Shown one piece after another: positions 35,601 through 60,925 of a stretch of DNA of 64,000 bases (positions are counted from its first letter, which is position 1; each line of letters begins with the position of its first letter). Both the position numbers and the translations under genes were made by a program. The notes beneath the pieces were generated by a model. That model ran no database searches. It saw nothing but the letters and a program-made list of their open reading frames with translations, and was not told the DNA's origin. Source of the DNA: a virus (lineage: Duplodnaviria > Caudoviricetes); IMG/VR virus record IMGVR_UViG_3300025655_003289, positions 743-64,742 of that record. The stretch is one strand, 5' to 3'.

Positions 35601-38600
35601 ATATGTTTATGAATGTCCCTGAAAAATCCAGGATAAATTTCATAGAGAGCATAAGAAAAAGTCCACGAACAGCGTTTGAGGTGTTAACTGCGAATGCTAA
35701 TGCTAACCACGGAATTACATTTGTCAATGATTCAAAGATAAAGAGCGTCATAAAAGACGAAAAACTTAGTGAATTTGACAAAACAATGGCTGCAATCGCT
35801 CCAAAGCACGAGGTTGGACACCATTATATGACGGTGAAGAACATAGAAAATATGGACGAGTCGATCATAGATAGAGCTTACGAGGATTTAAAAAATAAGA
35901 TAAATCGCAAGATATATAAAAATAGAAATCGTGCATTAAGCAATGAGGTTGAAGAAAGAATAAAGACGTATGAAGCGATAGCAGGAGGAAATAAAAAGTT
36001 GAAGTTTGAGGAGCTGATGAATTTATACTCTGACTTAAACTCTATAGGCTTCATCAATGACTCCGATATAGATTCTTCTTTTAGATTTAAAGATTTATTT
36101 AGGATTGGACAGAAAGATTTATTTGGCGAGTTAGATTCTGCTGCTGAATCTTCAGACATAAACTCTTCAATAATGAACCACTTGAGGTCATTTGAAGGTT
36201 TCTGGAAGAGTAAAAATAATCTTAGCGGTGGTTTGTCCAGAGGTAATGGAAGTCTGCTTAGTGTAGGGGAAAAGAGAGCTATGTACGATAAGATGTTTCG
36301 TAGTGGCGAAATAGACATGGACCAATATACAGATGCAATAATGAAGATTGCTGATGAGCAAGAAAAGAGTCCTAGTTCATGGAAGTCTGTGTTTAATGAA
36401 GCTCAAGAAACAATGGACCTCAACAATAAGACGGAGATACTTAACAGGCCAAAAGTAAGGAAAGCTTTAAAACAGCTCATCGAATATAACGCTAAAGACG
36501 TTATTGGCGCTGCTAAAATATCTGAATATGAAAAAGAGTCTTTTATCGATGATGTTATAGATGGTTGGGGAGGAAAAACAGGACTTGCTCACAGATTAAA
36601 AACATACGATCCTTCTCTTAAAAAATTAAACGGATACTTAACTGACAAGGTTAGGCAAGAAGCTCTAAACTTAGCTAATAGCACAAAGTACAAGAAAGAG
36701 CAGTACGACGTTAGAACTGATGACTACGAAGCTGGATATGACATCGCTTATCAAGATAACTTTGACGAGGCATTTGACCATCGTATTTTTGACGAAGGAG
36801 ATGTTTTAATAGATCCTATATCTATATTTAAGGATAAGGCTTTTGAATCAAAGGCGTCGGCAGAGGTAAGATCTAAATTTAATACTAGCGAGAAAGCCAA
36901 AATGTTTTTTGGAGACACTAGTAATTTAGTAACGGAATCTTTATCTGAGAAATTTCAAATACGAGAAGAGAGATTCTTAAAAGAAACTGGACAATTAAAT
37001 GCTGATGAATTAAACTCTTCAGCAAAAATAATATTCGACGCTGCTGAGGATATATATAATATATTACCTGATGCAAACTACGTTCTAGATCCAGCTTCGG
37101 CGGAAGGTAGAGGTATTAGCGTAAACATGAAGAGATTACTTCTTGATAACTTCTATGAGGTTGATTTAACAAGGCCAGAAGTCAATCCTAATACCGGTCG
37201 ACTTAAAAGGGAATTTGAAGAGGGTGTAGCTAAGACTGGTAAAAAAGTTACTGGAGCTAGCTCAGGAGTCGTTAAGTTCAAGAAACAGTTCAATAAAGGA
37301 GAGTTTTTGTCGATGCTTGGTATTAATGAAGATGGCACAAATAACTCATTTAGAGGTAAAAGTGATGAAGCTAATTTAAGACTTGCTGTTTTAAGGCAGA
37401 TTGGTAAATTAATAACCAATACCGAAGGGAGAAAAATAATGGAAGAGATGGGTGTTCCAACTCAAATGATAGTTGATTTCGGGGCCGGAAGGAGTAGTAG
37501 CATGCTTTCTGCTGGGAAAGCATTTACAAGGTCTAAGTTTAAATTTGTAGATTCAGAATTAAACATAACAGAAGAAAATATTAGAGAGACAATAGAGTCT
37601 TTAGATAGCGACGAGGATTTGTATAGATATGGAAACTATATGATGTCTCAGATGATGAATGACGAGAAGTTGTCTGATATGTTCTTCAAGATGGTTTTAA
37701 AGCTATATGAGTTAAAAGCTACAAGGTCTAAAGCGCAAACATTATTGACGATGCACCCTGGCATCAAAGGAATTTTCAATAAGAAGGGTGTTGATGCTAA
37801 ATCGGTACTTATAGGGTTAGCTGAGATATATAATAATAAAAAGGATTCTAGAATATTATCCGAGTACTCTCAGAAAGCTTACAATGTAATATCAAACTTA
37901 ATAAACGATACTGGCCTTAGTATAGACATAGCTAAATACATATTCCACTTCGATGCGGAAAATAAATCTAGTGTTGGCTCTGGAAAATTTGACGTTTCAG
38001 AGAAAACCAGTAAATACGCCGAAAAAACAAAGGAGGAGTTTAATAAGTTTAGGGAGGAAGGTATTGACAACAAGCTTTTCTTCTCGAATAAATTGAGTTC
38101 TGAGATCAATAAATATTTAAGGGAAACAGTTGGTCAAGATAACGAAACAAGGCTAAAGCATGTCGAAGGTCTTATAGAAAAAGCAAAAAAATACAATAGC
38201 TTAAAGCTTAACATAAGAAACACTGTTATCTCTGGATTGCACGACATGTTGTCTGATCCAAATCTAACTCCAGAACAATACACTGAAGCTGTTGCATACG
38301 CAACTTATGCATTAATCAACACTGGGTCTGGAACTAAAAACTTAGTGGAGATAAGCAAAGATCACAGTATGATAAGTGAGAATACTTTGATTAGAGGTGA
38401 CAAGTCTACTCTTTCGGTTATAGAAAAGAAAAAACAAAATCCAAAAGTAAAGCATCAACCTTATGTTCAAATAGAGCACGCTGTAACTACATCAAGTTAT
38501 GACGTTCAAGCAGCTATGTCCGCCATCACTGGTAAAATACCTTCGAACAACTATAGATATAGAGGAGGTGTTGTCGATGCCTCATACTCGAGAAATGTAG

Positions 38601-40885
38601 ATTCAAGAGGTATTAGACTAATAATGAATGGGGTAAACAAAATAGATGTTGACTACAGGACTCACTTAACAGGAAGAAGGTATAATGAGCTTAGGACTTT
38701 AGCGGAAAAAGACGGAGCTAGGATATTTAGCACATCTAAAGCATTCACTGAGCAAAACGGACTTGGAAGTAATCCTGAATCTAAAACAGACAGAGACAAT
38801 CTTGAGTATGTTACTGCAAATATAATTAAGAAAGCGACGGGTATAAATGTAGACGAGCAGATATCAGAGTCTACGGCTAGGCTTAATTCTGACAGAAGGA
38901 AGAAAGAGTTTAGATTTATGGCTCCTTCAGCTGATGATTTTACTGGTTTTTGGTATTCACTACTTGGTAAAGGTAAAGAGGGTGATGCTCAGAAAGCTTT
39001 CTTCAACAAGTATTTAACAGATCCGTTGAATCGCGCTTATGTGGCTATGACTCACGCTAGACAAAAGATAACAAGGGACTTTAAGGACTTGAACAAAGAA
39101 TATGAAGATGTAAAGGTTTCTATGTCTAAGGGGTCTGGCTATTTAAAATACACAAATGACCAGGCGCTTAGAGCATACTTATATTTGAAGTCTGGAAACT
39201 CAACATCGACATTAGGAATAAGTGAAGCTGACGCTAAGGCATTAGGTGATATTGTGATGTCTAACCCAAGAATGATGGAGTACGCAACTTATCTGCAGGA
39301 ATTGACAGGGACTACTGAATCATGGGTTAATCCAAAATCTAATTGGACGTTTGGCTCCATATTTGAAGACGTTGAGAGAATTATTGATGACGTAAAGAGA
39401 GCTGAGTATCTTGCTGAGTGGAAACAGAACGCAGATGCTATTTTCTCTCCGAACAACTTAAATAAGATAGAATCTCATTACGGGACAGACTTCAGGAATG
39501 CACTAGAAGATATGCTATACAGAATAGAAAAGGGGAAAGCTATACCTGAGAAGACAACTAAAGAGATGTCTGAGTTTCAGAAGTGGCTTACTGGTTCCGT
39601 TGCTGTTACGATGTTCTTTAATGCTAAATCAGCAGTACTTCAGTTAATGTCTATGACAAACTACATCAACTGGTCTGACAATAACCCTATACAAGCTGCT
39701 AAAGCATTCGCTAATATACCTCAGTTTGCTAAAGATGTAGTAAGAATATTCAATTCAGACTATCTCAAAGAAAGAAGGGGAGGGTTGAAAACGGAAGTTG
39801 AGGCCGCTGTATTAGCTAACGAACTCAGAAAGGGTGGGGTTGAAGGTTATAGAGGTTTTGTAAATAAATTGTTGCAGAAGGGATTCACTTTCACACAAAT
39901 AGGCGATAGTTTGGCTATATCTTTTGGTGGTGCTAGCTTTTATAGAAACAGGAAGAAGTCTTATATGAAAAAAGGAATGAATGAACAACAGGCTCATGAT
40001 CAAGCTTGGTTGGATTTCATTGAGGCTACTGAGCAATCTCAACAATCAGCCAGACCAGATAAATTATCAATGCAACAAACAACTAATGTTGGTCGTGTTT
40101 TCTTAGCTTTCCAAAACACGCCTATGCAATACTATAGGCTTACCACTAGAGCTGCTCAAGATTTAGCCGCTGGAAGGGGTGATAAAAGAGAGCATATAAG
40201 TAAGATAGCTTATTATTCATTTGTTCAGTCTGCAATTTTTTCTGGATTACAACAGTCGCTATTTGCATTTATGGGAGACGCTCCAGAGGATGAAGATGAC
40301 AAGGAAAAATACGACGCAGAAAAAGAGAAGAGAGTAATAAGAACTATAAATAGTGTTTTAGACACCATGTTAAGAGGGAGCGGTTTAAGAGGAGCTTATG
40401 TTGCCACAGTTAAAAATGCAATGTTAGAATTTGTTGCTCAAGAGAAAAAAGGCTATAAAGCTGATCACGCTAGGACACTTATAGAAGCATTGAACCTATC
40501 AGCTCCAATAGGCATTAAAGCTAGGACATTGTATCAGGGCGCTTACATGAACTACAAATACAACAAAGATATTGTAGAGGATATGGGCTTTGATATTGAT
40601 AACCCAGCATATGATATCGTAGGAAGTTTACTATCGGCTGGCGTTAATATTCCCATGGATAAAGTAATAAACGATATAAGACAATTGAAAGAAGCAGCTG
40701 ATTCTGACAATGACGCATGGCAAAGAGTTGCATTACTTTTAGGATGGAGCACTTGGAATCTTGGAATGGAAAATGAAAAGATTGAAAAATTAAAAGAGCA
40801 AAAGACGAAAGAGAAAAAAGAGGAAGCCAAAAAGAAGCGCCAAAGTAGATCTGGATGGGGTAAAAAATCAAAAAGTGGCTGGTAA
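32666..40885 (+). CDS. Giant multidomain ejection (polyvalent-type) protein with zincin HExxH and a sigma2-like segment
   Basis: 2739 aa. N-terminal KLYxAL...YTKSFDxFKTQFG repeated twice, HEVGH at aa 1048, GLAHRLKTYDP...LNGYL near aa 1305-1325. Confidence 0.7.
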   Translation: MEKLYQALYSSGKYTKSFDEFKTQFGTEEGAKKLYSALNSKGSYTKSFDDFKTQFGFEFKGALVDQEPTAAESKTEQPSFEDQYAAMSEEMMKQYTPQQAKTEPQDAGATVEEGVAPGTELSSGDGSSDSQEEYVDSDTAIADFYIKDGKKIPLTAEEYKDISFISKDFDYTLGDSYIIKGPGLGENGVSYNKKEIIEAANQYNMSPSAYLQSFINNPKYGVSVKQGGQTGGLEVPETVISAKAPEITRSETYTEYVDTPKGTIPVERTKTVSVNDEVEKYKNDVLDPIDNEIRRKQDEINSLLTDAYESQNESESKKIQGKIDELYVEKESLNQKREKEIGYFMRNYSEVEQKVVSNLLMSDTQSNIDKALGLKSKLDLKRKALSDFRDDNNIELLVGQLKGFDSQLLDIEKKIKSATSESEARVLLGEFMDIYKSPAYENLYNKLSTIGRVRDELIKDNTELMSMTDDVNLEENIKKAAATDYKKSSMALRDVDRFLGKTMIGLSVITPFVSTEEKDKLEAEITAAFDERWKNVAQPLNLDDFKSGKVSFGDYIGEVLASNAASTVGSVMMYALPGGQVIAPTIFGLSQAGQKKSDLKYYNRMIDAQMEQLKKSLENPDNKDNQDEIISEIDKLEQLKYTDNDIFYSAVMSGVIEGGITRLAGALGTGQLKIPGAGRLFEGTKIGKAFYDPSKLKLLKKGGGMTLGELSEEYPIAYLDKTLVDNLWLGQGRSASKIWQDISDITTWDMTANILINSGGSGLAFGSISAMSPLVNNARENARRREQFGKLMNYKNILNDRSLDYGQRMEADKEYKKLLAEISINEQNAWARMLSLSSEEFQEVYDLTYKKAQVKNKVAELTRKQITQGDKVQNKNVQSILTDLDNEYRGYDDRISELIDQKDGDLKAKDFLYMANYQAALGVSKAKSGRNFFKMGDAYMDLVNAANDVQLKIERGEQVDQNEINNIAEQLASRLENDNMFMNVPEKSRINFIESIRKSPRTAFEVLTANANANHGITFVNDSKIKSVIKDEKLSEFDKTMAAIAPKHEVGHHYMTVKNIENMDESIIDRAYEDLKNKINRKIYKNRNRALSNEVEERIKTYEAIAGGNKKLKFEELMNLYSDLNSIGFINDSDIDSSFRFKDLFRIGQKDLFGELDSAAESSDINSSIMNHLRSFEGFWKSKNNLSGGLSRGNGSLLSVGEKRAMYDKMFRSGEIDMDQYTDAIMKIADEQEKSPSSWKSVFNEAQETMDLNNKTEILNRPKVRKALKQLIEYNAKDVIGAAKISEYEKESFIDDVIDGWGGKTGLAHRLKTYDPSLKKLNGYLTDKVRQEALNLANSTKYKKEQYDVRTDDYEAGYDIAYQDNFDEAFDHRIFDEGDVLIDPISIFKDKAFESKASAEVRSKFNTSEKAKMFFGDTSNLVTESLSEKFQIREERFLKETGQLNADELNSSAKIIFDAAEDIYNILPDANYVLDPASAEGRGISVNMKRLLLDNFYEVDLTRPEVNPNTGRLKREFEEGVAKTGKKVTGASSGVVKFKKQFNKGEFLSMLGINEDGTNNSFRGKSDEANLRLAVLRQIGKLITNTEGRKIMEEMGVPTQMIVDFGAGRSSSMLSAGKAFTRSKFKFVDSELNITEENIRETIESLDSDEDLYRYGNYMMSQMMNDEKLSDMFFKMVLKLYELKATRSKAQTLLTMHPGIKGIFNKKGVDAKSVLIGLAEIYNNKKDSRILSEYSQKAYNVISNLINDTGLSIDIAKYIFHFDAENKSSVGSGKFDVSEKTSKYAEKTKEEFNKFREEGIDNKLFFSNKLSSEINKYLRETVGQDNETRLKHVEGLIEKAKKYNSLKLNIRNTVISGLHDMLSDPNLTPEQYTEAVAYATYALINTGSGTKNLVEISKDHSMISENTLIRGDKSTLSVIEKKKQNPKVKHQPYVQIEHAVTTSSYDVQAAMSAITGKIPSNNYRYRGGVVDASYSRNVDSRGIRLIMNGVNKIDVDYRTHLTGRRYNELRTLAEKDGARIFSTSKAFTEQNGLGSNPESKTDRDNLEYVTANIIKKATGINVDEQISESTARLNSDRRKKEFRFMAPSADDFTGFWYSLLGKGKEGDAQKAFFNKYLTDPLNRAYVAMTHARQKITRDFKDLNKEYEDVKVSMSKGSGYLKYTNDQALRAYLYLKSGNSTSTLGISEADAKALGDIVMSNPRMMEYATYLQELTGTTESWVNPKSNWTFGSIFEDVERIIDDVKRAEYLAEWKQNADAIFSPNNLNKIESHYGTDFRNALEDMLYRIEKGKAIPEKTTKEMSEFQKWLTGSVAVTMFFNAKSAVLQLMSMTNYINWSDNNPIQAAKAFANIPQFAKDVVRIFNSDYLKERRGGLKTEVEAAVLANELRKGGVEGYRGFVNKLLQKGFTFTQIGDSLAISFGGASFYRNRKKSYMKKGMNEQQAHDQAWLDFIEATEQSQQSARPDKLSMQQTTNVGRVFLAFQNTPMQYYRLTTRAAQDLAAGRGDKREHISKIAYYSFVQSAIFSGLQQSLFAFMGDAPEDEDDKEKYDAEKEKRVIRTINSVLDTMLRGSGLRGAYVATVKNAMLEFVAQEKKGYKADHARTLIEALNLSAPIGIKARTLYQGAYMNYKYNKDIVEDMGFDIDNPAYDIVGSLLSAGVNIPMDKVINDIRQLKEAADSDNDAWQRVALLLGWSTWNLGMENEKIEKLKEQKTKEKKEEAKKKRQSRSGWGKKSKSGW

Positions 40886-40895
40886 ATAAATAAAT

Positions 40896-41033
40896 ATGGC
40901 TAAGAAAGATGCTTGCTACAGCAAAGTAAAAAGAAGATATAAAGTATTTCCATCGGCTTATGCTTCAGGTGCAATAGCTAAATGCCGTAAGGTTGGAGCT
41001 AGTAACTGGGGTAATAAATCTAAAAAGAAATAA
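40896..41033 (+). CDS. Small basic protein (45 aa)
   Basis: Hand translation MAKKDACYSKVKRRYKVFPSAYASGAIAKCRKVGASNWGNKSKKK. Confidence 0.7.
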   Translation: MAKKDACYSKVKRRYKVFPSAYASGAIAKCRKVGASNWGNKSKKK

Positions 41034-41308
41034 TGGCTGTACGCAAGACTGAAAAAGGATTAGATCTTAAACGCTGGTTCAAAGAAGAATGGACAGATGT
41101 TAGAACTGGTAAGGCTTGTGGTAGGTCTGAAGGAGAAAAAAGAGGAACTCCGTATTGCAGACCTAAAAAGAGAGTGTCTAAAGATACGCCTAAGACAGTA
41201 GGTGAAATGTCTGCATCGGAAAAGAGATCAAGAATAAATCAAAAAAAGAGATTAGGGCAACCTGCCGGAAAACCGAGGCGGGTAAAATCATTAAAAAGAA
41301 AGAAATGA
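41033..41308 (+). CDS. Small basic protein
   Basis: LKRWFKEEW...CGR...PYCRP...TPKT, coupled to the previous ORF. Confidence 0.7.
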   Translation: MAVRKTEKGLDLKRWFKEEWTDVRTGKACGRSEGEKRGTPYCRPKKRVSKDTPKTVGEMSASEKRSRINQKKRLGQPAGKPRRVKSLKRKK

Positions 41309-41481
41309 CAAATATACAAGATATAAAAATACTTGCTCTAAATGCGGCTACTTTTCTTTTATCTTTTTCAAATATCGAGACAGTATTGAAGATAATGCTA
41401 TTACTTATATCAATAGGGTATACCGCTACGAAGTGGTATGAATTATATCGTAATAAAAAAAAATCTGAGGATGAGGTTTAG
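41305..41481 (+). CDS. Putative holin (58 aa)
   Basis: Hand translation MTNIQDIKILALNAATFLLSFSNIETVLKIMLLLISIGYTATKWYELYRNKKKSEDEV. Two hydrophobic segments and a charged tail, overlapping the endolysin start. Confidence 0.65.
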   Translation: MTNIQDIKILALNAATFLLSFSNIETVLKIMLLLISIGYTATKWYELYRNKKKSEDEV

Positions 41482-41839
41482 GTATTTTAAATACAGTGAA
41501 TTTGATTCCCCTGATGAACCTGGAAGCGGGGAGAAATATATGTCGAATAAACTAATCATGATGCTTGATTTAGTCAGGAAAGATTATGGAAGACCAATTA
41601 GAATTAACTCAGGATACAGGACTGAGGCTCATAATGCAAAGGTTGGAGGTGTAGCAGATTCTCCACATTTGTCAGGAGTGGCTGTAGACATAAAAGTAAA
41701 TAACAGCCGGGAGAGATATGAATTATTGGCATCATTATTAAAACATAATTTCCATCGCATCGGCATAGGAAATACGTTCATACATGTTGATATTGATGAA
41801 ACTAAAGACCCAGATGTTATCTGGTTATATAATGAATAA
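41471..41839 (+). CDS. Endolysin, peptidase M15 family
   Basis: INSGYR..HN..VGG..SPH..G.AVDI...FIHVD. Likely start at MRFRYF. Confidence 0.85.
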   Translation: MRFRYFKYSEFDSPDEPGSGEKYMSNKLIMMLDLVRKDYGRPIRINSGYRTEAHNAKVGGVADSPHLSGVAVDIKVNNSRERYELLASLLKHNFHRIGIGNTFIHVDIDETKDPDVIWLYNE

Positions 41840-41875
41840 AAAAAGGGAGCCCGTCAAGGCCCCCTTTCTTCATTT
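41838..41875. terminator. Bidirectional terminator at the convergence of the two arms
   Basis: A-run, GGGAGCC-cgtcaa-GGCCCCC imperfect hairpin, TTTCTT. Confidence 0.65.
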
Positions 41876-41884
41876 TAATACCTA

Positions 41885-44431
41885 CTAGAACGTATATTTC
41901 AAAGATGCGTTCCAAGTGCGACCGAATCCAAACCATACTGAATTGCGAACATCAACACCTTTCCAGGTCATCGCATTGCCATCAGCGTGAATATTTGTTT
42001 CAGATTCAGAGATGTATACTGTGTTAAACAAGTTGTTAATATTAACACGAGCTGTAACTTTGTTTCCAAATAGAGTATATCTAGATGTAAATCCTAAATC
42101 AGCTAAACCATATGAAGGAAGCTTAACAGCTCCAGCGTTATCAGGTTTAGTAAATACAGCATCAGTAGGAGCATAATCAGCGTAAAGATTACCAGCTGTA
42201 CGATAACTAGCATCTACAGTAACCTTTCCAATTCCTATGTCGCCTAAGTAATAATCCGCACCAAAGTAAGTAGTGAACTGAGCCGCATCACCTACTTTAG
42301 CGTCTTTCAAATAAAGAACTCCTTCACCAATCTCTTGTTGATTTGCATCAAACAAAGTGGCTTTAAAGTCCTTGGTGTATCTCCAATCTCCAACAGAAAT
42401 ACTACCTTGTAGTTTTAGTTTAGATACTGGGCGATACGTACCTTCAATTTCAATTCCCTTGTGATTCTCACTTACATCTTTAAATTGGGCAGTTCCTTGG
42501 TCTCCTTGGGCATTAAACAATGAACGACTAACAAATCTGTTACCCCAAGACGTAGCATAAGCATTTACATTAACACTTAGCTTGTCAGTCTTGTATCCAT
42601 ATCCAACTTCAAAAGAACGAATCTTCTCATTGCGCAAATCAGGGTTAACCTCATTTGCATAATTAGGGAATACAGCGTCAAACTGAGGCTGACGATTAAT
42701 TAATCCAGTGTTGAAAAATACATTTGATTTATCATTAATATTGTAATTAGCACCAGTTTTTAAATAACCACCACCTTGATTTGCTTTGTCAGAAACTGGA
42801 TTTCCAGGTTGGTCAAAGTAATCCTCACGTTTGAAAGATTGATTTGATTTACCAAACTGCAACACAGCGTTTACTCTATTGTCTTCACTAGTATGTTCAA
42901 CCATACCGTTAACACCTTGCCATCCAACAATTCCTATGTTATAATAATCAATCATAGGACCTTTAAGCCCTGTATTTTTAAACGGGGAAGCCTCAACAGT
43001 AGCTTCAACAATCTGACCAGCGGAGTTTTTGTTTCCAGTCGAGTAATAGCCATCAAGACCAAGAAGGTCGTTAAGAACACGATAGTGGTAACCTTTATAA
43101 GAACGTAAATCAATCCCGATAGAAGCACGAAATCCATCTCCTAAATCTTTTTCTAAATTAGAAATAGCACCAACCCAGTCATGAGAGTTCATTGAAGCCC
43201 TACGAACAAGTACGGCACGATTAACACCATCATCCCTATAACCATTTGAACCAATCAACATACCTCCAAACTTAGATATAGATCCACTGTAGGGATTTGT
43301 TGTAGATTGATTAACCTCAACTGCTTTGTCAAAATTAATAAATCCATTTCTGTCACGAGTACCACGGCCATTCGCTAAATACTGCTCGGTCAAATCCTTG
43401 TTGAAAGGATAATAATCAATCTCTGCATTTCTAAAGTTACCACCACGAGGGCCAGTACCTCCTCCGCGTCCAGCAGAGCCGTACAGAGACGTGTTAAGAC
43501 TTGTGGTGGAGTTGATGTCCCAATCCCAGTTTAACGTAGCTAGTGGCTTATTATAAAAATTCCTACGCATATTGTACTCCTCGCCATTCAGGAAACCAGC
43601 ATCGGTGTTCCATCTTTGGTCAATCTTTCCTGGAGTTCCAAAATTAATGTAATCACGTATTGAAACCCAAGAGCTACGTTGGTGATGCCATTGTCCTGCA
43701 CCCAAGATAGATAGATTCAAGGAGTGATTAGAGTCCTTAGGAGCATACCCTAACGCAAAGAAATACGTTAAGCCTTCTCCCGATGTTCCGTAAACATAAC
43801 CGTCTCCAGCCCATTTACTCAACAACACTGAGGATGCCCATCCAGAGTCGCTCAGACCTGTGTTGTACACTGCGGATGTTTTTGTGTATCCATCATTTCC
43901 AAACGTTTGAGAGAACGAACCTCCCTCTGACAAATCAGCTGTTTTAGTTAAGATGGATACCGTACCACCTACAGATGGAACAGCTAATCTAGATGCTCCA
44001 AGGCCACGTTGAATCTGAATACCAGAAGCAACATCGGTAAGTCCCTGCCAGTTAGACCAATACACCCATCCATTCTCCATATCATTGACTGGTTGTCCGT
44101 TGATAAGAAATGATGTGTTGCGTTGGTCGAAACCGCGTAATGTGATTCGGGAATCTCCATAACCACCACCTTGCTTTGTGGCGTAAACACTTGGAGTACT
44201 TTTCATAATTTCAGGAAACTCTTGATTCCCTACTTTTAATGAAATCTCATTCGAAGAGATTGTCGACACCGCAACGGGGGTTGCCCGTTCTTTTGCGATG
44301 TCAATAATCCTAGAGGATACTGTAACCTCATTTAGTTTCTCTACCAAGATAATCGTTGAGTCTTGGTCTTTTTCTTGAGCGGTTATTGAAGCCGTCCAGA
44401 TTAATGATAAAATAAACAAAAGTTTCTTCAT
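41885..44431 (-). CDS. TonB-dependent outer-membrane receptor (intact)
   Basis: Signal peptide MKKLLFILSLIWTASITAQ, TonB-box-like LNEVTVS, plug ITLRGF...INGQPVND...IQIQRG...GGTVSI, barrel end NINNLFN...FGRTWNASLKYTF. Confidence 0.92.
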   Translation of the reverse strand: MKKLLFILSLIWTASITAQEKDQDSTIILVEKLNEVTVSSRIIDIAKERATPVAVSTISSNEISLKVGNQEFPEIMKSTPSVYATKQGGGYGDSRITLRGFDQRNTSFLINGQPVNDMENGWVYWSNWQGLTDVASGIQIQRGLGASRLAVPSVGGTVSILTKTADLSEGGSFSQTFGNDGYTKTSAVYNTGLSDSGWASSVLLSKWAGDGYVYGTSGEGLTYFFALGYAPKDSNHSLNLSILGAGQWHHQRSSWVSIRDYINFGTPGKIDQRWNTDAGFLNGEEYNMRRNFYNKPLATLNWDWDINSTTSLNTSLYGSAGRGGGTGPRGGNFRNAEIDYYPFNKDLTEQYLANGRGTRDRNGFINFDKAVEVNQSTTNPYSGSISKFGGMLIGSNGYRDDGVNRAVLVRRASMNSHDWVGAISNLEKDLGDGFRASIGIDLRSYKGYHYRVLNDLLGLDGYYSTGNKNSAGQIVEATVEASPFKNTGLKGPMIDYYNIGIVGWQGVNGMVEHTSEDNRVNAVLQFGKSNQSFKREDYFDQPGNPVSDKANQGGGYLKTGANYNINDKSNVFFNTGLINRQPQFDAVFPNYANEVNPDLRNEKIRSFEVGYGYKTDKLSVNVNAYATSWGNRFVSRSLFNAQGDQGTAQFKDVSENHKGIEIEGTYRPVSKLKLQGSISVGDWRYTKDFKATLFDANQQEIGEGVLYLKDAKVGDAAQFTTYFGADYYLGDIGIGKVTVDASYRTAGNLYADYAPTDAVFTKPDNAGAVKLPSYGLADLGFTSRYTLFGNKVTARVNINNLFNTVYISESETNIHADGNAMTWKGVDVRNSVWFGFGRTWNASLKYTF

Positions 44432-44468
44432 AAGAATATATAATGGTTAATAATTAAATAAAACAATA

Positions 44469-46253
44469 CTACCCGTCACAAGACAAGCAATCTGGATTCA
44501 TTGCCTTCATTGCAATATCACCCCTTAAAACTGATTCTGTACGCATATAATATAACGTCTTAACGCCTTTCTTCCAAGCGTCTAAATGAACTTGGTTAAT
44601 CCATTTAGGAGTTGCTTCTGAAGGGAACGCAAGATTTAGAGATACGGATTGGTCGATGTACTGTTGGCGTATTCCAGCTTGATTAACTAACTCAAGTTGA
44701 TTAATCTCTTTGAATGTCTTAAATACGTCTTTAACAGCTTCGAATCCTTCAAGCTTAATCTTTTCAAGTGTACTCTCTTGGATATCAGCAATAGACTGCA
44801 ATCCACGAGGAGTAAAAACATAATCATCTAGCTCTTTTATTCCTTGAACAGAACCCTTGTCTTCTAATATTTTATCCCATATGGCTTTCGTATTTAAACC
44901 AATATCATCTAAAACCTTTTCAAGCTCTGGGTTCTTTCGAATAAACGTTCCCTTAGCAGATTGTTCCGTAAATAGATTAGCGGCCCAAGGCTCAATACCC
45001 GGAGAAACATTACCCGAAAGCTTTGAGTTTGATACTGTAGGAGCGATTGCTCGTAAGTGAGTATTTCTAAATCCTGTATCTCTACACCATAGCGGCTCTC
45101 CATAAATCTTCGCAAGGTCTCTTGAGGCTCGTTCCGATTCAATCTTAATCTGGCTGAAAATCTTTCTTGTTTCGAACTGCGCTCGAAGACCCTCAAAAGG
45201 TATTCCCCTTTGTTGTAGATAAGTATGCCATCCCAAAACTCCAAGCCCCAAAGCTCTCCCTTTTTCCGCGCTGCGGACACTATTCTCAAAACCTTTAAGC
45301 CCTTTCGCCCTCTGAATAAATTCTTCAAGTACACCATCCAAAAACCAAATAGAGTGGTATACCAAGTCAGTGTCTTTCCATTCATTATATTTAGCTAAAT
45401 TTACTGAACTAAGGCAACACACAAAACTATGGGTTTCATCCGTATGTAGTGTTATCTCGGAACAGATGTTAGTCATGTGTACTTTTAATCCGTTTGTTCT
45501 ATATGCTTCTGGATTCGCTTTGTTAGTGTTTCCTTTAAAAAGGATATATGGTTCTCCAGTTGCTTTACGCTTTTGGAGAAGCTTACCCCATTTCCTTCTC
45601 GCATCGATATCTCCTCCTTCAAGTCTTCGCATAAACTTATCTCCGATAACAACACATTGGTGAAGGTTGAGAGATTGTCTATTGACATCCCCTTTTGGCT
45701 CTCTGATTTCAAGAAAGCTTTCAAAGTCGTCGTGGTCAATGTTGAGATTAACTGACGCAGCCCCTCGTCTGACAGACCCTTGTGAGGTTGCAAGTATTGT
45801 TGAATCATATATCTTACAAAATGGAACAACACCATCTGATGTTCCGTTATTAGTTATTTTAGCTCCCGCAGGACGTATCATATTAATACCTACGCCAACA
45901 CCGCCTCCGTGTTTGGCAAGTATCATCATCTCCAGATTCTTAGATCCAATCTCTTGGATACTATCTCCGACATCTATTCCGAAACAAGATATAGGAAGAC
46001 CTCTGTCTGTTCCTGTGTTAGATAATACTGGAGAGGCTAGATTTAACCAGCCTTTCCAGATATAATCAAAGAAGATAGAAGCCATCTCAGGCTTATATAA
46101 TCTCTTAGCTACAGTAGTGGCAACTCTCTCATACGCATCCTTAGGAGTCTCCCACGGCAGAAGATACCCACCAATTATTGTTTTCTTGTACACTTCAGTG
46201 TCTCCCCATTCAGGATAGTCAATCCCAACCTTCCAGTTCTCGTTCCAAGTCAT
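44469..46253 (-). CDS. nrdA: Ribonucleotide reductase class I alpha subunit (short, no ATP cone)
   Basis: PISCF, TNICSEI, CCLSSVNL, AIAPT, KTLYY, C-terminal CLSC. Confidence 0.93.
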   Translation of the reverse strand: MTWNENWKVGIDYPEWGDTEVYKKTIIGGYLLPWETPKDAYERVATTVAKRLYKPEMASIFFDYIWKGWLNLASPVLSNTGTDRGLPISCFGIDVGDSIQEIGSKNLEMMILAKHGGGVGVGINMIRPAGAKITNNGTSDGVVPFCKIYDSTILATSQGSVRRGAASVNLNIDHDDFESFLEIREPKGDVNRQSLNLHQCVVIGDKFMRRLEGGDIDARRKWGKLLQKRKATGEPYILFKGNTNKANPEAYRTNGLKVHMTNICSEITLHTDETHSFVCCLSSVNLAKYNEWKDTDLVYHSIWFLDGVLEEFIQRAKGLKGFENSVRSAEKGRALGLGVLGWHTYLQQRGIPFEGLRAQFETRKIFSQIKIESERASRDLAKIYGEPLWCRDTGFRNTHLRAIAPTVSNSKLSGNVSPGIEPWAANLFTEQSAKGTFIRKNPELEKVLDDIGLNTKAIWDKILEDKGSVQGIKELDDYVFTPRGLQSIADIQESTLEKIKLEGFEAVKDVFKTFKEINQLELVNQAGIRQQYIDQSVSLNLAFPSEATPKWINQVHLDAWKKGVKTLYYMRTESVLRGDIAMKAMNPDCLSCDG

Positions 46254-46404
46254 ATTTTTTTGTTATATTAGGTTCTACTATTTCGTATCTATGTCCATCC
46301 TTGTACCACTGTGTACTCTTATCGTCGAGTCTCCTCCATTTCCAGTTAGGCACTTTTTTACAAAGCACCCATAATAATTCCTCGTTATTTTCCATATAAT
46401 TCAA
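46219..46404 (-). CDS. Hypothetical protein
   Basis: 61-aa ORF between thyX and nrdA. Confidence 0.45.
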   Translation of the reverse strand: MNYMENNEELLWVLCKKVPNWKWRRLDDKSTQWYKDGHRYEIVEPNITKKYDLERELEGWD

Positions 46405-47029
46405 ATGCTCTTAACGTATATCGAAACGGATTTCCTTCAATATTCTTAACAAGGGATAACATCTCTTGCGCAATTTCTCTAATCTCTTTTTGAGCGTGTT
46501 CACTATTTCTAAGTTTTAAAAAGTTTGCAAAGCTTCTCATATTAAACATAACATCGGACTGAATCTGAGAGTTGTAAGCTTTGAAAAACCTAGCAGACTC
46601 TTTAGCCCTTTTCCTGCCCAATGGACCAGATAACTCATTCAGACATTCGTGATACAACTTATTACTAAGCTGACTAAATGTGTCAAGCCTCTCTATCCAA
46701 TCATCTGGCCAGTCTTCCGGAATATAAGATTTATCTTCCTTCAATTCCTTATATCTAGCTGATTCGGCATTTAGAGAAGATATGCGGTGCTTTAATAGAT
46801 GTATATGACTGGCAATATCACAATCAACAAGAAAGTGCACTGTACCTTTCTCAAATGGCGTCTCGTGACCATGAGACCACAACATATCTATCAATGCAGG
46901 GATACGCTCCCTTTTTTCATCTGTCAAATCTCTTGATGTCGATGTCCAAGCACTACAAGCTATAACCTCGTCACTGCCATAATAACCTAATAATTCAACT
47001 TTATTTTCTCCTACCATAGTTCTTCCCAA
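46385..47029 (-). CDS. thyX: FAD-dependent thymidylate synthase
   Basis: GHETPFE, KHRISSLNAESARY, LRNSEHAQKEIR. Confidence 0.9.
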   Translation of the reverse strand: MGRTMVGENKVELLGYYGSDEVIACSAWTSTSRDLTDEKRERIPALIDMLWSHGHETPFEKGTVHFLVDCDIASHIHLLKHRISSLNAESARYKELKEDKSYIPEDWPDDWIERLDTFSQLSNKLYHECLNELSGPLGRKRAKESARFFKAYNSQIQSDVMFNMRSFANFLKLRNSEHAQKEIREIAQEMLSLVKNIEGNPFRYTLRAFELYGK

Positions 47030-47979
47030 TCCTCTTTTTCGTTAGCTTTAGAATAATCTGTTGGTCTTATTGCAAAGAAATCTGTATGCGTAACACCTCC
47101 AGTTAAGTGGTAGAACCAATCCAACTCGCTAGCGCTATCGCTGTCAAATTTAAAATAATTAGCATGGTCATTATATCCCAGTTCGACAATTTTTTCATTA
47201 ATTCTTTTACGTATAAAATTCTTTAAGTCTTTAGCTTTGAGATTTTCAATATCCCCCTGCTCAAACATCTTGTCAATGTATTTCTCTTCAAGAGTAAGCA
47301 TTACTGCCGCAGCCTCCAAAACATCACTACGAACATCGTCCTTCAGTCCTGGTATCTCATCGCATATATGCCTAAACAACTGACAACCCATCTTACTGTG
47401 TAACGATTCATCACGTACACTCCATTTCATTTGTTGCCCAATCCCTTTGAGCATATTTCGCAATTGGAAGCTGTACAATACAGCAAATGCGCTGTAAAGA
47501 GAAACGCCTTCTGCGAACGCAGAAAATATTGCCAAAGATCTAGCAATACCTTTTGGATCTTTACCATCATAACTGACTAAATTATCAAACCTTGCAGCAG
47601 TTGTTGGCTCGTGCAAGAAAGCCTCAAAATCTTCAAGACCTAGTGTTTCGTTTAAATAAGAATAAGCTACTGCGTGTATTGTTTCCTGAGAACCAAACAT
47701 CATAGCCATTTGTTGTATCTCGTGCTTAGGGAACCATCCGACTACCTTTTGAGTCCAATAATCAGATACTGCGCATTCAGTCTGCGCAAAACCAAGTAGT
47801 ATATTTCCGACTAAGTTCTTTTCAGATTCAGTAAGTTTCTCATTCCAATCTTTTACATCTCCAGACATAGGAATCTCTGTGTGTAGCCAAAATGCTTGAG
47901 CCTGTGGAAGCCAACCTTCAGTATAATATACTGGGTATTCAAATGGTTTGTAAGGTATTCTTTCGTCAAATAATCCCAT
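47011..47979 (-). CDS. nrdB: Ribonucleotide reductase class I beta subunit
   Basis: ETIHAVAY, AEGVSLYSAF, RDESLH, TDFF...TDY. Confidence 0.93.
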   Translation of the reverse strand: MGLFDERIPYKPFEYPVYYTEGWLPQAQAFWLHTEIPMSGDVKDWNEKLTESEKNLVGNILLGFAQTECAVSDYWTQKVVGWFPKHEIQQMAMMFGSQETIHAVAYSYLNETLGLEDFEAFLHEPTTAARFDNLVSYDGKDPKGIARSLAIFSAFAEGVSLYSAFAVLYSFQLRNMLKGIGQQMKWSVRDESLHSKMGCQLFRHICDEIPGLKDDVRSDVLEAAAVMLTLEEKYIDKMFEQGDIENLKAKDLKNFIRKRINEKIVELGYNDHANYFKFDSDSASELDWFYHLTGGVTHTDFFAIRPTDYSKANEKEDWEELW

Positions 47980-47991
47980 AAAATTTTAGAT

Positions 47992-48025
47992 AAAAATACC
48001 CGCCCAACCGAAGCAGAGCGGGTAT
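47992..48025 (-). terminator. Rho-independent terminator
   Basis: ATACCCGC...GCGGGTAT hairpin with a minus-strand T-run. Confidence 0.65.
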
Positions 48026-48043
48026 AAATTAATAAATACTATC

Positions 48044-48310
48044 TTATTTTAAGCCTACTTTAGCTTTAAGGCGACCATATACAGCAATGGCTTGTCCTAC
48101 GAAGAACATAACTCCAGCTACAATATTATCAGCGCTATTAGCCAATTCATCAGCTCCAGTCATAGCTGTATCAACAGCGCCCTGAACATCTACTTTACCG
48201 CTAGTCAAAGCAAATACAACCCCAGAAATAGAGGATATTGCAAGGCCGATAATTGTTTTAGACTTATACCAAGCCTTAAAGTTTTGAACGATTTCTGTTC
48301 CTTTTCCCAT
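48044..48310 (-). CDS. Small two-TM membrane protein (holin-like)
   Basis: KAWYKSKTIIG, two hydrophobic helices, YGRLKA. Confidence 0.6.
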   Translation of the reverse strand: MGKGTEIVQNFKAWYKSKTIIGLAISSISGVVFALTSGKVDVQGAVDTAMTGADELANSADNIVAGVMFFVGQAIAVYGRLKAKVGLK

Positions 48311-48334
48311 AATATAAATTGTTAAAATTAATAA

Positions 48335-48661
48335 TTACTCTACGTTATTTGAGGGGGTGACCTCAGCCGTCAAAGAATCAACAGCGTTGATTAAATCTTC
48401 CATTGTTACTTTTGCAGGCTCAATAACTGGCTCTACTGGTTTCGGAGCCACCAAAACCAATACTTCATTCTTTAACTGCTCTAAGTAATCCGCTGATTTA
48501 GAAGCAGTTACGAAGCTAGTGATGTTGTCCATTAGACAATCATAATCATTAATAGATAAACAAGCCATCGCCTTATCGTAAAGAGCGACGGAGTTTTTTC
48601 TTACTCGAGAAATCTCGGCATCCATTAGACCCGTGAATAAGTCAATCTTTTTTTGTTCCAT
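48335..48661 (-). CDS. Hypothetical protein
   Basis: ORF in operon context. Confidence 0.5.
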   Translation of the reverse strand: MEQKKIDLFTGLMDAEISRVRKNSVALYDKAMACLSINDYDCLMDNITSFVTASKSADYLEQLKNEVLVLVAPKPVEPVIEPAKVTMEDLINAVDSLTAEVTPSNNVE

Positions 48662-48675
48662 TTTTTTGTGTATGT

Positions 48676-48825
48676 TTAGTTTTCTATTGCAATTGCAAAA
48701 TCAACAAACGGCAAATAAAATACATAAGTTGTTACATTCTCAGTATAATATGTGCGAGCCCCAATCAATATCCCGGGATACAATCCAAATGATAACTCCC
48801 AAGCCTTTTCATCTTTTTCTTCCAT
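48676..48825 (-). CDS. Small hypothetical protein (49 aa)
   Basis: Hand translation MEEKDEKAWELSFGLYPGILIGARTY...YLPFVDFAIAIEN. Confidence 0.55.
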   Translation of the reverse strand: MEEKDEKAWELSFGLYPGILIGARTYYTENVTTYVFYLPFVDFAIAIEN

Positions 48826-48828
48826 GTA

Positions 48829-48987
48829 TTAATAAACCTTAACATTATAATAGTCCTGAATCTCCACTAACTCTCTGTATTTTAGAAATCCTTTTTGCTT
48901 AAGAGACCACTTGACAAACTTATCAATCTGTCTCTTGCTGTATTGATTTCTAGATACATGCTTTTCATTCTTGCTTAGGTGTCTCAT
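48829..48987 (-). CDS. Small basic protein (52 aa)
   Basis: Hand translation MRHLSKNEK...IDKFVKWSLKQKGFLKY..., ATGA-coupled. Confidence 0.55.
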   Translation of the reverse strand: MRHLSKNEKHVSRNQYSKRQIDKFVKWSLKQKGFLKYRELVEIQDYYNVKVY

Positions 48988-49130
48988 CTTCCTTGTCCTC
49001 TGTATTTCTTTTTGTAATTCTTAGAGCTCTTTAGATTTGACGTTTTTGTCTTAGCGTGAACCCCAGGCCTAGAGACCTTGACCTTGACCTTCTTATTAAT
49101 ATCGCTTGATTGCTTCTTAATTTTAGCCAT
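48984..49130 (-). CDS. Small very basic protein (48 aa)
   Basis: Hand translation MAKIKK...RPGVHAKTKTSNLKSSKNYKKKYRGQGR. Confidence 0.65.
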   Translation of the reverse strand: MAKIKKQSSDINKKVKVKVSRPGVHAKTKTSNLKSSKNYKKKYRGQGR

Positions 49131-49588
49131 TAATTCTTAAATTTATTATTATTTTCCAATATCAAAGATATAACTTTGTCGCACTCGATTTTAGTCTGAG
49201 GTTTGTACAATGTTATGCCGCTCATGTTGTCTTCGACGTATTTCTTAAACAACTTCCATCTCATTGGAAACGACTCATTGCTTCTGCCTTTACACTCAAT
49301 AATAAAACCTTGTCCGACAAAGTCAGGTGTATACTTTATAGGCAATATCTTTTTATTCCCTCTGTTTATAAACTCTCCTTTCCCATTAGACTGCCTTTCG
49401 TAAACTTCAGTCGTGAAATCAAATCCATCAATCAAAGTGAAAACATCCCCTTCATATATTGCTTTTATCCCAGCTTTTTTAAGAGCCATATACATATATC
49501 TTTCAAGACCAGAAGCAAAATTAATACCATCGTACTTTATTTTATTCGCCTGTACTGGACCCTTCTTTTTTGATTTTCTCATCTGCAT
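49130..49588 (-). CDS. PD-(D/E)xK endonuclease (T7 endonuclease I / resolvase-like)
   Basis: YDGINFASGLE...YTPDF...IIECKG. Confidence 0.8.
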   Translation of the reverse strand: MQMRKSKKKGPVQANKIKYDGINFASGLERYMYMALKKAGIKAIYEGDVFTLIDGFDFTTEVYERQSNGKGEFINRGNKKILPIKYTPDFVGQGFIIECKGRSNESFPMRWKLFKKYVEDNMSGITLYKPQTKIECDKVISLILENNNKFKN

Positions 49589-49799
49589 TTATTTGCTTTA
49601 AAACATTCCTTGTCTTTTCGATATACAGCAAGGCATCCATTAACTCTTCTTGAATATGATTCATCCAGTAATCTACTGATCCATCATTTTCTTCTAATGT
49701 AGTCCCATACTTTTTATATCCGACGTTAGATCTATCCGCAAACTTCCTAGCTACAGACTCGACAATCGGGTCAACAAACACAATACTAACTCTCTTCAT
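49542..49799 (-). CDS. All-alpha NTP pyrophosphohydrolase-like protein
   Basis: GYKKYGTTL...HIQEELMDALLY. Likely start at MKRVSIV. Confidence 0.6.
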   Translation of the reverse strand: MKRVSIVFVDPIVESVARKFADRSNVGYKKYGTTLEENDGSVDYWMNHIQEELMDALLYIEKTRNVLKQINADEKIKKEGSSTGE

Positions 49800-50061
49800 T
49801 CTTATTTTTATTATAATAATACCTATAATACTCAAAGACCTTAGCCGTGACCTCTCCTTTTCCGTAGGTCTCTGGAGATTTATGTAGCTTTCTTCCAAGC
49901 TTTATAAACACATGCCACGGCCCTTCGACTTTAACCTCCTCATAAACAACTATGCCATTATTTATGCACCATGTGTAGGCTGTGTAGTCTTCTCTGGTCT
50001 TTTCGTACTCTCCATAATCAAGCAATCCGTTTGGATTTAATTTAAACTTTCTCATCACCAA
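49786..50061 (-). CDS. Hypothetical protein
   Basis: ORF in operon context. Confidence 0.55.
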   Translation of the reverse strand: MVMRKFKLNPNGLLDYGEYEKTREDYTAYTWCINNGIVVYEEVKVEGPWHVFIKLGRKLHKSPETYGKGEVTAKVFEYYRYYYNKNKNEES

Positions 50062-52279: not shown

Positions 52280-52621
52280 CTATTTCTCATAAGGAACTGC
52301 GTGTCCTTCTCGTAACATTAATTCACTTAGGTTCTCACCATCTACATATATTTCTCCAAGGCTTCTTCCAAAACTATCAAGTTCAGAAGAATGAACAACC
52401 ATATATGCATCTCTATTATCATCCATGTATATCCTCAAAAAATCTTTAGCTTCTAAGCCTCTTTCTTTCTCCTCTAAATCTTTAGTTCTCGTCTCTGGAG
52501 AGTTTATACCAAGCAACCTTATAGTTATATTGTGGAATATACTAAAGCCAAGATCTACTGTTGCTTCTATTGTGTCTCCATCTACAACTCGACGAACTTT
52601 TGTAATTTCGTATGTGTACAT
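52280..52621 (-). CDS. Thermonuclease (SNase-like)
   Basis: RVVDGDT, IRLLGINSPE, DSFGRSL. Confidence 0.88.
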   Translation of the reverse strand: MYTYEITKVRRVVDGDTIEATVDLGFSIFHNITIRLLGINSPETRTKDLEEKERGLEAKDFLRIYMDDNRDAYMVVHSSELDSFGRSLGEIYVDGENLSELMLREGHAVPYEK

Positions 52622-60839: not shown

Positions 60840-60853
60840 AACAATTACTTTAG

Positions 60854-60925
60854 TACCCTCACCTAGAATCGAACTAGGAATCCAAGCTTAGAAGGCTAGT
60901 GTTATATCCGTTTAACTATAAGGGC
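60854..60925 (-). tRNA. tRNA-Arg(TCT)
   Basis: Cloverleaf GCCCTTA.../TGAGGGT, loop CT-TCT-AA, T-loop GTTCGATT. No encoded CCA. Confidence 0.85.

Follow-up and report, generated by a model that had tools for sequence, protein, structure and literature searches.

A conserved Bacteroidota TonB-dependent transporter repeatedly captured by phages, including a 65-kb phage in which it adjoins nrdA: a probable importer with nucleic-acid breakdown products as a possible cargo

Why should an apparently lytic phage encode a complete TonB-dependent outer-membrane transporter (TBDT), and what might the infected cell import through it? This question is raised by a 64,000-nucleotide stretch of viral DNA (Duplodnaviria; Caudoviricetes), positions 743 to 64,742 of IMG/VR virus record IMGVR_UViG_3300025655_003289, the whole of which is hereafter called the window. 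Its minus-strand open reading frame (ORF) 41885..44431 encodes an intact TBDT of 848 amino acids (aa), a member of a Bacteroidota orthologue group for which we use the label TBDR1. Judged from sequence comparison, phylogeny and gene neighborhoods, the gene is a copy of one conserved Bacteroidota importer that different lineages of phages have taken up on many occasions, the ordinary 65-kb phage of the window among them. Phage genes of this kind are known but have hardly been described.

The assignment of the protein to the TBDT family is based on the Pfam plug and barrel matches, an AlphaFold2 model and Foldseek comparison. The signal peptide (residues 1-19, MKKLLFILSLIWTASITAQ; 44375..44431, minus strand, as are all parts of the gene) was read from the translation, and short-form orthologues have the same type of N-terminus. 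It is followed by the stretch LNEVTVSS (residues 33-40; 44312..44335), which we take to be the TonB box from general knowledge of the TBDT family and which aligns with a conserved L-x-E-V-V-V-x-S pattern in 129 phage and cellular rows. The plug domain (residues 48-156; 43964..44290) matches PF07715 with an E-value of 9e-12 and 45.9 bits against a cut-off of 23.9, and the beta-barrel (approximately residues 170-848, ending in KYTF; 41888..43924) was delineated from the strand pattern of the model and a match to TonB_dep_Rec_b-barrel (PF00593) at residues 302-801 (E-value 4.5e-12, 47 bits against a cut-off of 27). The AlphaFold2 model, built from a 50-row alignment, contains the plug and a full barrel, with a mean predicted local distance difference test score of 85.6 and a predicted template modeling (TM) score of 0.83. 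Foldseek matched this model to the PDB structures of FhuA, PqqU, FemA, YncD, FoxA and FecA (E-values 1e-40 to 1e-31; TM scores on the target of 0.7-0.8 over the whole list). For the top four, FhuA, PqqU, FemA and YncD, the E-values are 1e-40 to 1e-34 and the TM scores 0.75-0.81, with 0.76 for FhuA (1e-40) and 0.81 for YncD. Because the structural matches are only 12-15% identical in sequence to the window TBDT, they reflect the common fold. The predicted 22-strand barrel around a plug, together with the TonB box, the signal peptide and the C-terminal aromatic F, is the architecture of the family, and the preliminary description, made from the letters alone, had read the intact ORF with its terminal YTF in the same way.

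That description had also pointed to the short N-terminus. Indeed, no CarboxypepD_reg N-terminal extension was found by Pfam in the window TBDT, and the extension is present in many orthologues; this feature is not phage-specific, however, as TBDR1 has a short version (about 835-850 aa) and a long one (about 900 aa, with N-terminal CarboxypepD_reg) in cells as well as in phages. NCBIfam yielded only two weak matches below the cut-off for the window TBDT and none to the SusC/RagA model; one of the two, in the C-terminal part, is to a heme/transferrin receptor family (E-value 1.2e-14, far below the cut-off). A PDB sequence search produced no match at E <= 0.001, and no named or characterized member of TBDR1 was found in the NCBIfam, protein and PDB sequence searches. 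The protein-atlas cluster that includes the window TBDT has 71 members, 87% of them viral, and bears the name 'putative TonB-dependent receptor'.

The virus record (64,742 bp) is rated 100% complete and the window covers nearly all of it. PHROGs and Pfam identify in the window a large terminase, a portal, virion and tail proteins, a holin, an endolysin, a primase-helicase, an exonuclease, MazG, a sigma factor, GroEL and Cpn10; a BACON-domain protein (Pfam) indicates a Bacteroidota host. Scans of the window ORFs (51 with PHROGs; 9 and 54 with Pfam) detected no integrase and no SusD, TonB or ExbBD family, in agreement with the earlier statement that no SusD partner or integrase is visible. The locus itself is genuine. 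A 4.9-kb stretch spanning both junctions of the TBDT gene is represented by 0.90-0.98 of the sampled words in eight runs from four studies, labelled freshwater metagenome, one of which may be the source of the window DNA, and further aquatic and marine runs contain part of it; no RNA run is listed among the holders of this stretch. The junction with the endolysin is crossed by contigs of runs X2 (41005-41920) and X3 (40500-41920), and the junction with nrdA by contigs of X2 (43151-47434), X3 (43067-45368), X4 (42483-46071) and X9 (44265-44609). The gene thus lies among phage genes and not at a host junction, as had been proposed, and its position is not an assembly artifact. Furthermore, four related contigs (L014, L015, L019 and L103), with backbone proteins 59-88% identical to those of the window, share the gene order nrdB-thyX-nrdA-thioredoxin-TBDT opposite the endolysin. 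The contig L103 was assigned to a metagenome-assembled genome (MAG), and its TBDT is identical to that of L019. Together with L099 and L112, it belongs to three contigs that are found in Crocinitomicaceae and Arcticimaribacter MAG bins, have phage neighbors and are probably phage contigs inside these bins; in L099 and L112, an S1/P1 nuclease gene comes after the TBDT gene. The carrier of the window TBDT is, then, a mid-sized (65-kb), non-T4-like phage from fresh or brackish water.

Relatives of the window TBDT are widespread in both phages and cells, and a protein search recovered 7,884 of them among 8,000 candidates scored. In IMG/VR, at least 501 of the 502 pattern-matched stretches encode a relative, and 80 loci were kept for the neighborhood study. 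The frame is open over at least 800 aa in 72 of these 80 loci, the other eight run off the contig end, and in none is the frame broken away from contig ends. Among species-representative genomes, a relative is encoded in 601 of the 616 pattern-matched stretches; the 67 loci kept come from Flavobacteriales, Cytophagales, Chitinophagales-like bacteria, Balneolaceae and others, their identity within the matched stretch being 44-79%, and eight further cell loci were confirmed as cellular by Pfam. Core-group cell copies that match over nearly the full length are 54-71% identical to the window TBDT. A megablast search of window positions 38000-50000 against a cultured-phage collection gave no match; by tblastn, the only full-length matches in that collection, at 33-34%, are in two unannotated gut records, one of them L267 (described below), and the megaphage and Lak phage records match the N-terminal part.

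The cellular copies occupy housekeeping settings: the gene is preceded by DUF3108, M23 peptidase and PGI genes in Flavobacteriaceae and by RecA in Schleiferiaceae and Cryomorphaceae. PGI precedes TBDR1 in 29 host loci (for example, the Flavobacteriaceae loci L096, L100 and L110), and L083 exemplifies the position after RecA in Schleiferiaceae. A GH16 glycanase is encoded directly upstream of TBDR1 in L106 (8871-9725) and L095 (7395-9774), L111 has the same upstream gene cluster, and L095 also has a SusD-like gene and another TBDT upstream. The neighbors in the 80 phage loci are of a different kind and include clamp loader, RFC-like ATPase, PolB, gp32, UvsX-like, DnaB, 5'-3' exonuclease, nrdAB, thioredoxin, GroEL/Cpn10, GMP reductase, 7-deazaguanine and glycosyltransferase genes. 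They form at least seven distinct layouts around the TBDT gene, the host layout is found in none of the 80 loci, and viral and cellular copies have almost no neighboring gene clusters in common; nrdA, nrdB and GroEL matches are absent from all 67 genome loci. In eight phage loci (L010, L012, L047, L062, L067-L069 and L081), the TBDT gene is located inside a 7-deazaguanine set (QueD-like, radical SAM, FolE and QueF-like), and the same carriers also encode a phosphoribosyltransferase and a PurN-like formyltransferase.

The phylogeny of TBDR1 does not contain the phage clade that one might have looked for on the basis of the preliminary description; instead, phage and cell copies interleave. In a FastTree phylogeny of 139 rows, the viral label requires 11 switches, of which the starred branches force at least 10; with shuffled labels, the mean is 46 switches, and none of 500 shuffles gave a number as low. 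At least nine switches are forced in an IQ-TREE phylogeny of 47 rows, computed with the posterior mean site frequency model (to which all the following groupings refer), and four phage-cell sister pairs are supported (L016-L090, L074-L117, L075-L105 and L011-L114). The phage copies are accordingly polyphyletic, with repeated exchange between phages and cells. The window TBDT clusters, with support of 99-100, with P0003-P0006, the nearest proteins (87-74% identity), which are known here as proteins alone; scans of metagenomes and of IMG/VR with P0004 found nothing above 75% identity. The nearest cell copy in the genomes searched is 71% identical over the full length (78% for a partial match), so that transfer to the window lineage was not recent. 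Within the order of L130, 164 of the 201 sampled genomes have some match, three of them full-length at 66-71%, and the next match is at 47%.

The syntenic relatives L014 and L015, together with L021, group elsewhere in the tree, next to the cell copies L106, L111, L087 and L095 (support 98); L019, near-identical to L014, was left out of the 47-row tree. The approximately unbiased (AU) test (22 rows, LG+G4 model, with the tested group named after the first tree was seen) rejected the union of the window allele and the syntenic relatives in one group, at p = 3.7e-6 without P0003, P0004 and P0006 and at p = 0.0075 with them. Given this rejection, related phages carry different alleles at one and the same position, and the TBDT allele in the nrdB-thyX-nrdA slot has been replaced. 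The relatives of the L014 type carry a thioredoxin gene at this slot, which the window does not.

Selection on the phage copies was assessed from the ratio of nonsynonymous to synonymous substitution (dN/dS; Nei-Gojobori), all pairs being pairs of copies other than the window allele. The ratio lies at 0.05-0.08 among L014, L015, L019 and L021, where dS reaches about 2; its median is 0.168 for the 84 viral pairs whose dS falls between 0.05 and 0.5, and three cellular pairs in that range give 0.047. Purifying selection in the phage copies of relatives is apparent from both sets. The decay in relatives that the preliminary description had named as a possible refutation was not seen, as there are no broken frames among the 80 loci and the slot is kept in the four related contigs. 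With phage genes on both sides and conservation under purifying selection in related phages, the gene qualifies, by its sequence, as an auxiliary metabolic gene.

The encoded proteins of phages and cells differ in no systematic way. In an alignment of 129 rows, those that reach the N-terminus retain both the signal peptide and the L-x-E-V-V-V-x-S box. Between 76 viral rows, including that of the window, and 42 cellular core-group rows, not a single column has a different dominant residue, and no phage-specific residues or indels were found. The gap and entropy profiles run parallel in the two sets, and the plug columns 81-160 are almost invariant in both. Invariant Arg, His and Trp residues were also noted in the family. 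This pattern favors an unchanged transport function over a modified decoy, and we consider it probable that the window TBDT is a functional importer; its expression, membrane insertion, use of the host TonB and cargo are what we infer from these comparisons.

In the window, the TBDT gene lies 37 bp downstream of nrdA and on the same strand, as had been claimed (spacer 44432..44468, minus strand). The operon that would extend across this spacer consists, on the minus strand, of nrdB (ribonucleotide reductase small subunit, 47011..47979), thyX (flavin-dependent thymidylate synthase, 46385..47029) and nrdA (ribonucleotide reductase large subunit, 44469..46253), all identified by Pfam and PHROGs, and the TBDT gene is predicted to be co-transcribed with nrdA. 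A pattern scan also found a weak terminator-like stem at 44491-44468, near the spacer. On the other side, the TBDT gene converges with the gene for an M15 peptidase endolysin (41438..41839, plus strand; Pfam, PHROGs). The 45-bp spacer between the two stop codons (41840..41884) folds into a terminator-like hairpin flanked by an A-run and a T-run (-25.8 kcal/mol, z = -4.48, equaled by none of 200 shuffles), which is a plausible two-way terminator, in agreement with the terminator that the preliminary description had placed between the two genes. Ten genes away from the TBDT gene is the sole nuclease-like gene of the window, for an SNase-like protein without a signal peptide (52280..52621, minus strand), homologues of which are encoded directly upstream of the TBDT gene in four other phage loci.

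The main clues to the cargo come from the neighborhoods of the phage copies. Within four genes of the TBDT gene, the 83 phage loci encode a P-loop AAA_28 kinase-like protein (PHROG 'thymidylate kinase') in 39 cases, an exported S1/P1 nuclease (PF02265, E-value 4e-60) in 23, a small membrane protein in 21, nrdA in 15, GMP reductase in 15, an Endonuclease_NS with a lipoprotein-type N-terminus in 10 and a purine phosphoribosyltransferase in 7. Any of S1/P1, Endonuclease_NS, AAA_28, nrdA, GMP reductase and phosphoribosyltransferase is found at this distance in 57 of the 83 phage loci and in none of the 63 cellular loci. A nuclease (S1/P1, Endonuclease_NS or SNase-like) is encoded within two genes in 28 of the 83 phage loci; the corresponding number for cells is 7 of 63, all of them Exo_endo_phos_3. 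The SNase-like nucleases beside four phage copies, like that of the window, have no signal peptide and were not counted as exported. A two-helix membrane protein of 75-81 aa is often encoded between the S1/P1 nuclease and the kinase (for example, L003 12442-12687 and L065 13378-13605), and its atlas clusters, the first of which has 329 members, are almost all viral and unnamed. The TBDTs of the carriers with nuclease or kinase neighbors are 62-75% identical to that of the window. The gene cluster that was first labelled AAA_28 is not one protein; according to Pfam and PHROGs, it comprises the S1/P1 nuclease and the P-loop AAA_28 protein.

In cells, Exo_endo_phos_3 is encoded within four genes of TBDR1 in 8 of the 63 loci, and a second, distant TBDT is also near; a scan of two such loci, L089 and L107, found a DUF5689 protein encoded after the second TBDT in each. 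In these marine Flavobacteriaceae, a locus resembling the ddb DNA-utilization locus discussed below adjoins TBDR1 (L089 13607-18890; L107 12966-18348), and the DUF5689 protein contains a lamin-tail domain in L089 and has a weak DUF5017 match in L107. Six further loci (L093, L113, L127, L139, L143 and L146) have a similar layout by the gene-cluster map only. Another ddb-like set, consisting of a TBDT, two unknown proteins, Endonuclease_NS and Exo_endo_phos_3, is present in the gut record MT837128.1 (L267 6651-14202), whose TBDT is 33% identical to that of the window over 96% of the length; this record is filed as 'Bacteriophage sp.' and looks bacterial (RadA-like, LuxR-type regulator).

The explanation that we favor is that the window TBDT is a host-derived auxiliary gene whose product works as a TonB-dependent outer-membrane importer, with breakdown products of nucleic acids as its cargo; taken as a whole, this statement is tentative and falls somewhat short of being probable. 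The gene would be transcribed with an early and middle nucleotide-supply operon, nrdB-thyX-nrdA-TBDT, and the protein would be exported, inserted into the outer membrane by the host machinery and energized by the host TonB-ExbBD. It would maintain or boost, during phage replication, the import of whatever the chromosomal orthologue imports, the likeliest cargo being breakdown products of outside nucleic acid (nucleotides or short oligonucleotides), and these products would supply the adjacent ribonucleotide reductase and thymidylate synthase. The preliminary description had suggested an auxiliary uptake gene that feeds the nrdB-thyX-nrdA module with a metal, a vitamin or a nucleotide; uptake remains the favored role, and of the three cargoes the nucleotide type is the best supported, by the association with nucleases and the kinase in other phages.

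Several observations weigh against this explanation. The window encodes no exported nuclease, AAA_28 kinase or small membrane partner detectable with PHROGs and Pfam, so that the case for a nucleic-acid cargo in the window phage rests on orthology. Auxiliary genes of phages gather in replication and nucleotide modules anyway, and adjacency may reflect the timing of expression and not a pathway; moreover, the 83 phage loci are mutually related and do not represent independent counts. The higher dN/dS of viral compared to cellular pairs (only three of the latter) may indicate somewhat relaxed selection on the phage copies. Host neighborhoods diverge, with PGI-M23-DUF3108 in most Flavobacteriaceae, RecA in Schleiferiaceae and GH16 in L106 and L095, and the GH16, SusD-like or PGI genes near some of the host copies may hint at a glycan cargo. 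An Rfam search upstream of TBDR1 in six host loci revealed no riboswitch and only one tRNA, and the DUF5689-linked paralogue is only 23-31% identical to the window TBDT.

It is somewhat unlikely that the TBDT is a working importer of a different cargo, be it iron or some other metal destined for the di-iron NrdB, a vitamin, or laminarin oligosaccharides or some other glycan. Here, the phage would carry the gene to sustain a limiting host uptake after host transcription stops; cyanophages, for comparison, carry psbA or pstS. The fold, conservation and selection that argue for function apply to such a cargo equally, as does the recurrent adjacency to nrdA (15 of the 83 phage loci within four genes, plus the window). 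The best structural matches are to siderophore and small-molecule TBDTs (FhuA, FemA, PqqU, YncD and FoxA), although at an identity of only 12-15%, and the heme/transferrin receptor match, below its cut-off, points in the same direction. A glycan would fit the GH16 and SusD-like genes near the orthologue (both in L095; GH16 in L106) and the PGI gene before 29 host copies, but the window TBDT has neither a SusD partner nor an NCBIfam match to the SusC family. No Fur-type, riboswitch or siderophore gene context was seen (Rfam in six host loci; Pfam of neighbors), and no substrate-processing enzymes other than exported nucleases recur next to the phage copies.

It is less likely still, and indeed improbable, that the protein acts at the cell surface, as a phage-made receptor copy that excludes superinfecting phages or replaces or masks the host adsorption protein. 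TBDTs are classic phage receptors, and the Foldseek matches include FhuA with T5 pb5 and FhuA with the exclusion lipoprotein Llp. The repeated allele replacement in one slot and the phage-cell sister pairs would also fit a gene matched to the current host. A preprint on huge phages proposes a role in the receptor landscape for phage-encoded outer-membrane barrels, the same role as that considered here, as stated in its available part (10.64898/2026.10.24.761521). However, an extra receptor copy leaves the host's own copy in place; the phage copies exhibit no convergent change, loop loss or TonB-box loss; purifying selection extends over the whole length, including the plug, much as in cells; and the neighboring genes serve nucleotide metabolism or encode nucleases, and have to do with neither adsorption nor the envelope. 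With no separating columns, a retained TonB box and purifying selection, the decoy or superinfection-exclusion role raised in the preliminary description thus gains nothing. Finally, a neutral passenger recently taken from the host, or an assembly chimera, with no role in the phage, would fit the clearly frequent host-to-phage transfer of TBDR1 and the finding of no RNA run with the TBDT stretch, but this very improbable reading is largely refuted by selection (dN/dS of 0.05-0.08 at dS up to about 2 in the L014/L015/L019/L021 lineage) and by contigs of several runs that contain both junctions, and is further contradicted by the four related contigs with the same slot occupied, the unbroken frames in all 80 IMG/VR loci and a nearest cell copy too distant (71% full-length, 78% partial) for recent transfer.

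Returning to nucleic-acid breakdown products as the cargo, a broader possibility, which we regard as doubtful, is that pieces of a pathway for scavenging extracellular nucleic acid are spread over many unrelated phages of aquatic Bacteroidota, with genomes ranging from 65 kb to those of T4-like and jumbo phages. In this scheme, the exported S1/P1 and Endonuclease_NS nucleases would cleave DNA or RNA, either extracellularly or in the periplasm, and the captured host TBDT would admit the products through the outer membrane. Their uptake and trapping would fall to the virus-only small membrane protein and the P-loop kinase, and their conversion to ribonucleotide reductase, ThyX, GMP reductase and phosphoribosyltransferase. 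If so, TBDR1 would provide the first example of an outer-membrane importer of nucleotides or oligonucleotides that needs no DUF5689 lid, dissolved DNA would be consumed by infected cells, and the fact that the gene has been captured repeatedly and replaced within its slot would imply that phages have to fit the allele to the TonB system or the envelope of their current host.

As one importer has been captured many times and kept under selection, its uptake step must limit phage production in nature. Should nucleic-acid debris be the cargo, dissolved DNA and RNA, which make up a large aquatic pool of phosphorus and nitrogen, would be recycled through infected cells, and a very conserved, uncharacterized outer-membrane protein of Bacteroidota would gain a function that is directly testable in cultivable Flavobacteria.

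Several other features of the window were recorded. GroEL (Cpn60, E-value 3e-55) is encoded at 11943-13517 on the plus strand, with Cpn10 directly after it (13498-13761, plus), and a further ORF (15647-16252, plus) is filed by PHROGs as co-chaperonin GroES; GroEL or Cpn10 is also encoded close to the TBDT gene in many T4-like carrier loci. The structural module ends with an ORF of 2,739 aa (32666-40885, plus) that has no Pfam or PHROG match and has relatives in L014, L019 and L103 (42-69% match). A cluster of six tRNA genes (60853-61557, minus) comprises Arg-TCT, Met, Thr-TGT, Lys-TTT, Pro-TGG and Gln-TTG. At the far end of the genome, the ORF 548-1018 (minus) is, according to PHROGs, a 5'-3' deoxyribonucleotidase, that is, another nucleotide-pool gene.

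How does the window TBDT compare with known systems? In the literature, as represented by the passages available, phage TBDTs are mentioned in passing and only for very large phages: the marine megaphage Mar_Mega_1 encodes a 'SusC' (PMC9723777), a transcribed TBDT is described for Lak phages, and 22-stranded barrels of huge phages have been catalogued (bioRxiv 10.64898/2026.10.24.761521). A literature search with exact phrases for a phage- or virus-encoded TonB receptor returned no paper; supplementary tables may list more phage TBDTs. The proteins of the very large phages are likewise phage-encoded 22-strand TonB-dependent barrels that the passages at hand regard as products of auxiliary genes, and carbohydrate uptake or receptor interference has been proposed for them; a link to nucleic acids is not mentioned in these passages (PMC9723777; 10.64898/2026.10.24.761521). 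Their carriers, however, exceed 200 kb (540-735 kb for the matched Lak and megaphage records), as opposed to the 65-kb window phage, which is not T4-like. In the megaphage and Lak records, similarity to the window TBDT is confined to its first 225-317 residues (25-36% identity), and the sole TBDT in BFVD is 11% identical to it. To these accounts, the window adds a mid-sized, non-T4-like carrier, a TBDT joined to an nrdB-thyX-nrdA operon and the apparent replacement of the allele within the slot.

The ddbABCDEF DNA-utilization locus of Bacteroides thetaiotaomicron, demonstrated experimentally in 2025, is related to natural-transformation genes of Riemerella, and DUF5689 is the family of its DdbD lid, as described in the available part of that study (PMC12478041). 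This locus combines a Bacteroidota TBDT with exported nucleases that act on outside DNA, and the related phage loci similarly have Endonuclease_NS and S1/P1 around the TBDT; in some hosts, a DUF5689-linked TBDT and Exo_endo_phos_3 adjoin TBDR1. Unlike in the ddb locus, the DUF5689 lid gene is beside no phage copy, including that of the window, its cluster being found only in cellular loci next to the second paralogue, and the window encodes no exported nuclease. Conversely, the accessible text of that source lists neither an S1/P1 nuclease nor the small membrane protein or the kinase as a ddb component (PMC12478041). Kinship to DdbC was judged by proxies, namely 23-31% identity to the DUF5689-linked TBDTs and 33% to the nuclease-linked TBDT of L267.

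The SusC/RagA proteins of polysaccharide utilization loci differ in that their SusD lid gene is absent both among the window ORFs scanned and beside the phage copies, and in that the window TBDT has neither a match to the family model nor the CarboxypepD_reg extension. The closest counterpart is chromosomal TBDR1 itself. From signal peptide and TonB box to plug and barrel it is built like the window copy, and no alignment column is specific to either group; its genomic setting is wholly different, with almost disjoint neighbor clusters. Among the nutrient-uptake auxiliary genes of marine phages, pstS of cyanophages encodes a periplasmic binding protein. The two cases are alike in that a host-derived uptake component has been selected in lytic phages, where, for pstS, it is thought to ease a nutrient limit on phage DNA synthesis. 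They differ in the step concerned, which is periplasmic binding in the cyanophages and, in the window phage, would be an energy-coupled outer-membrane gate that needs the TonB system of the host.

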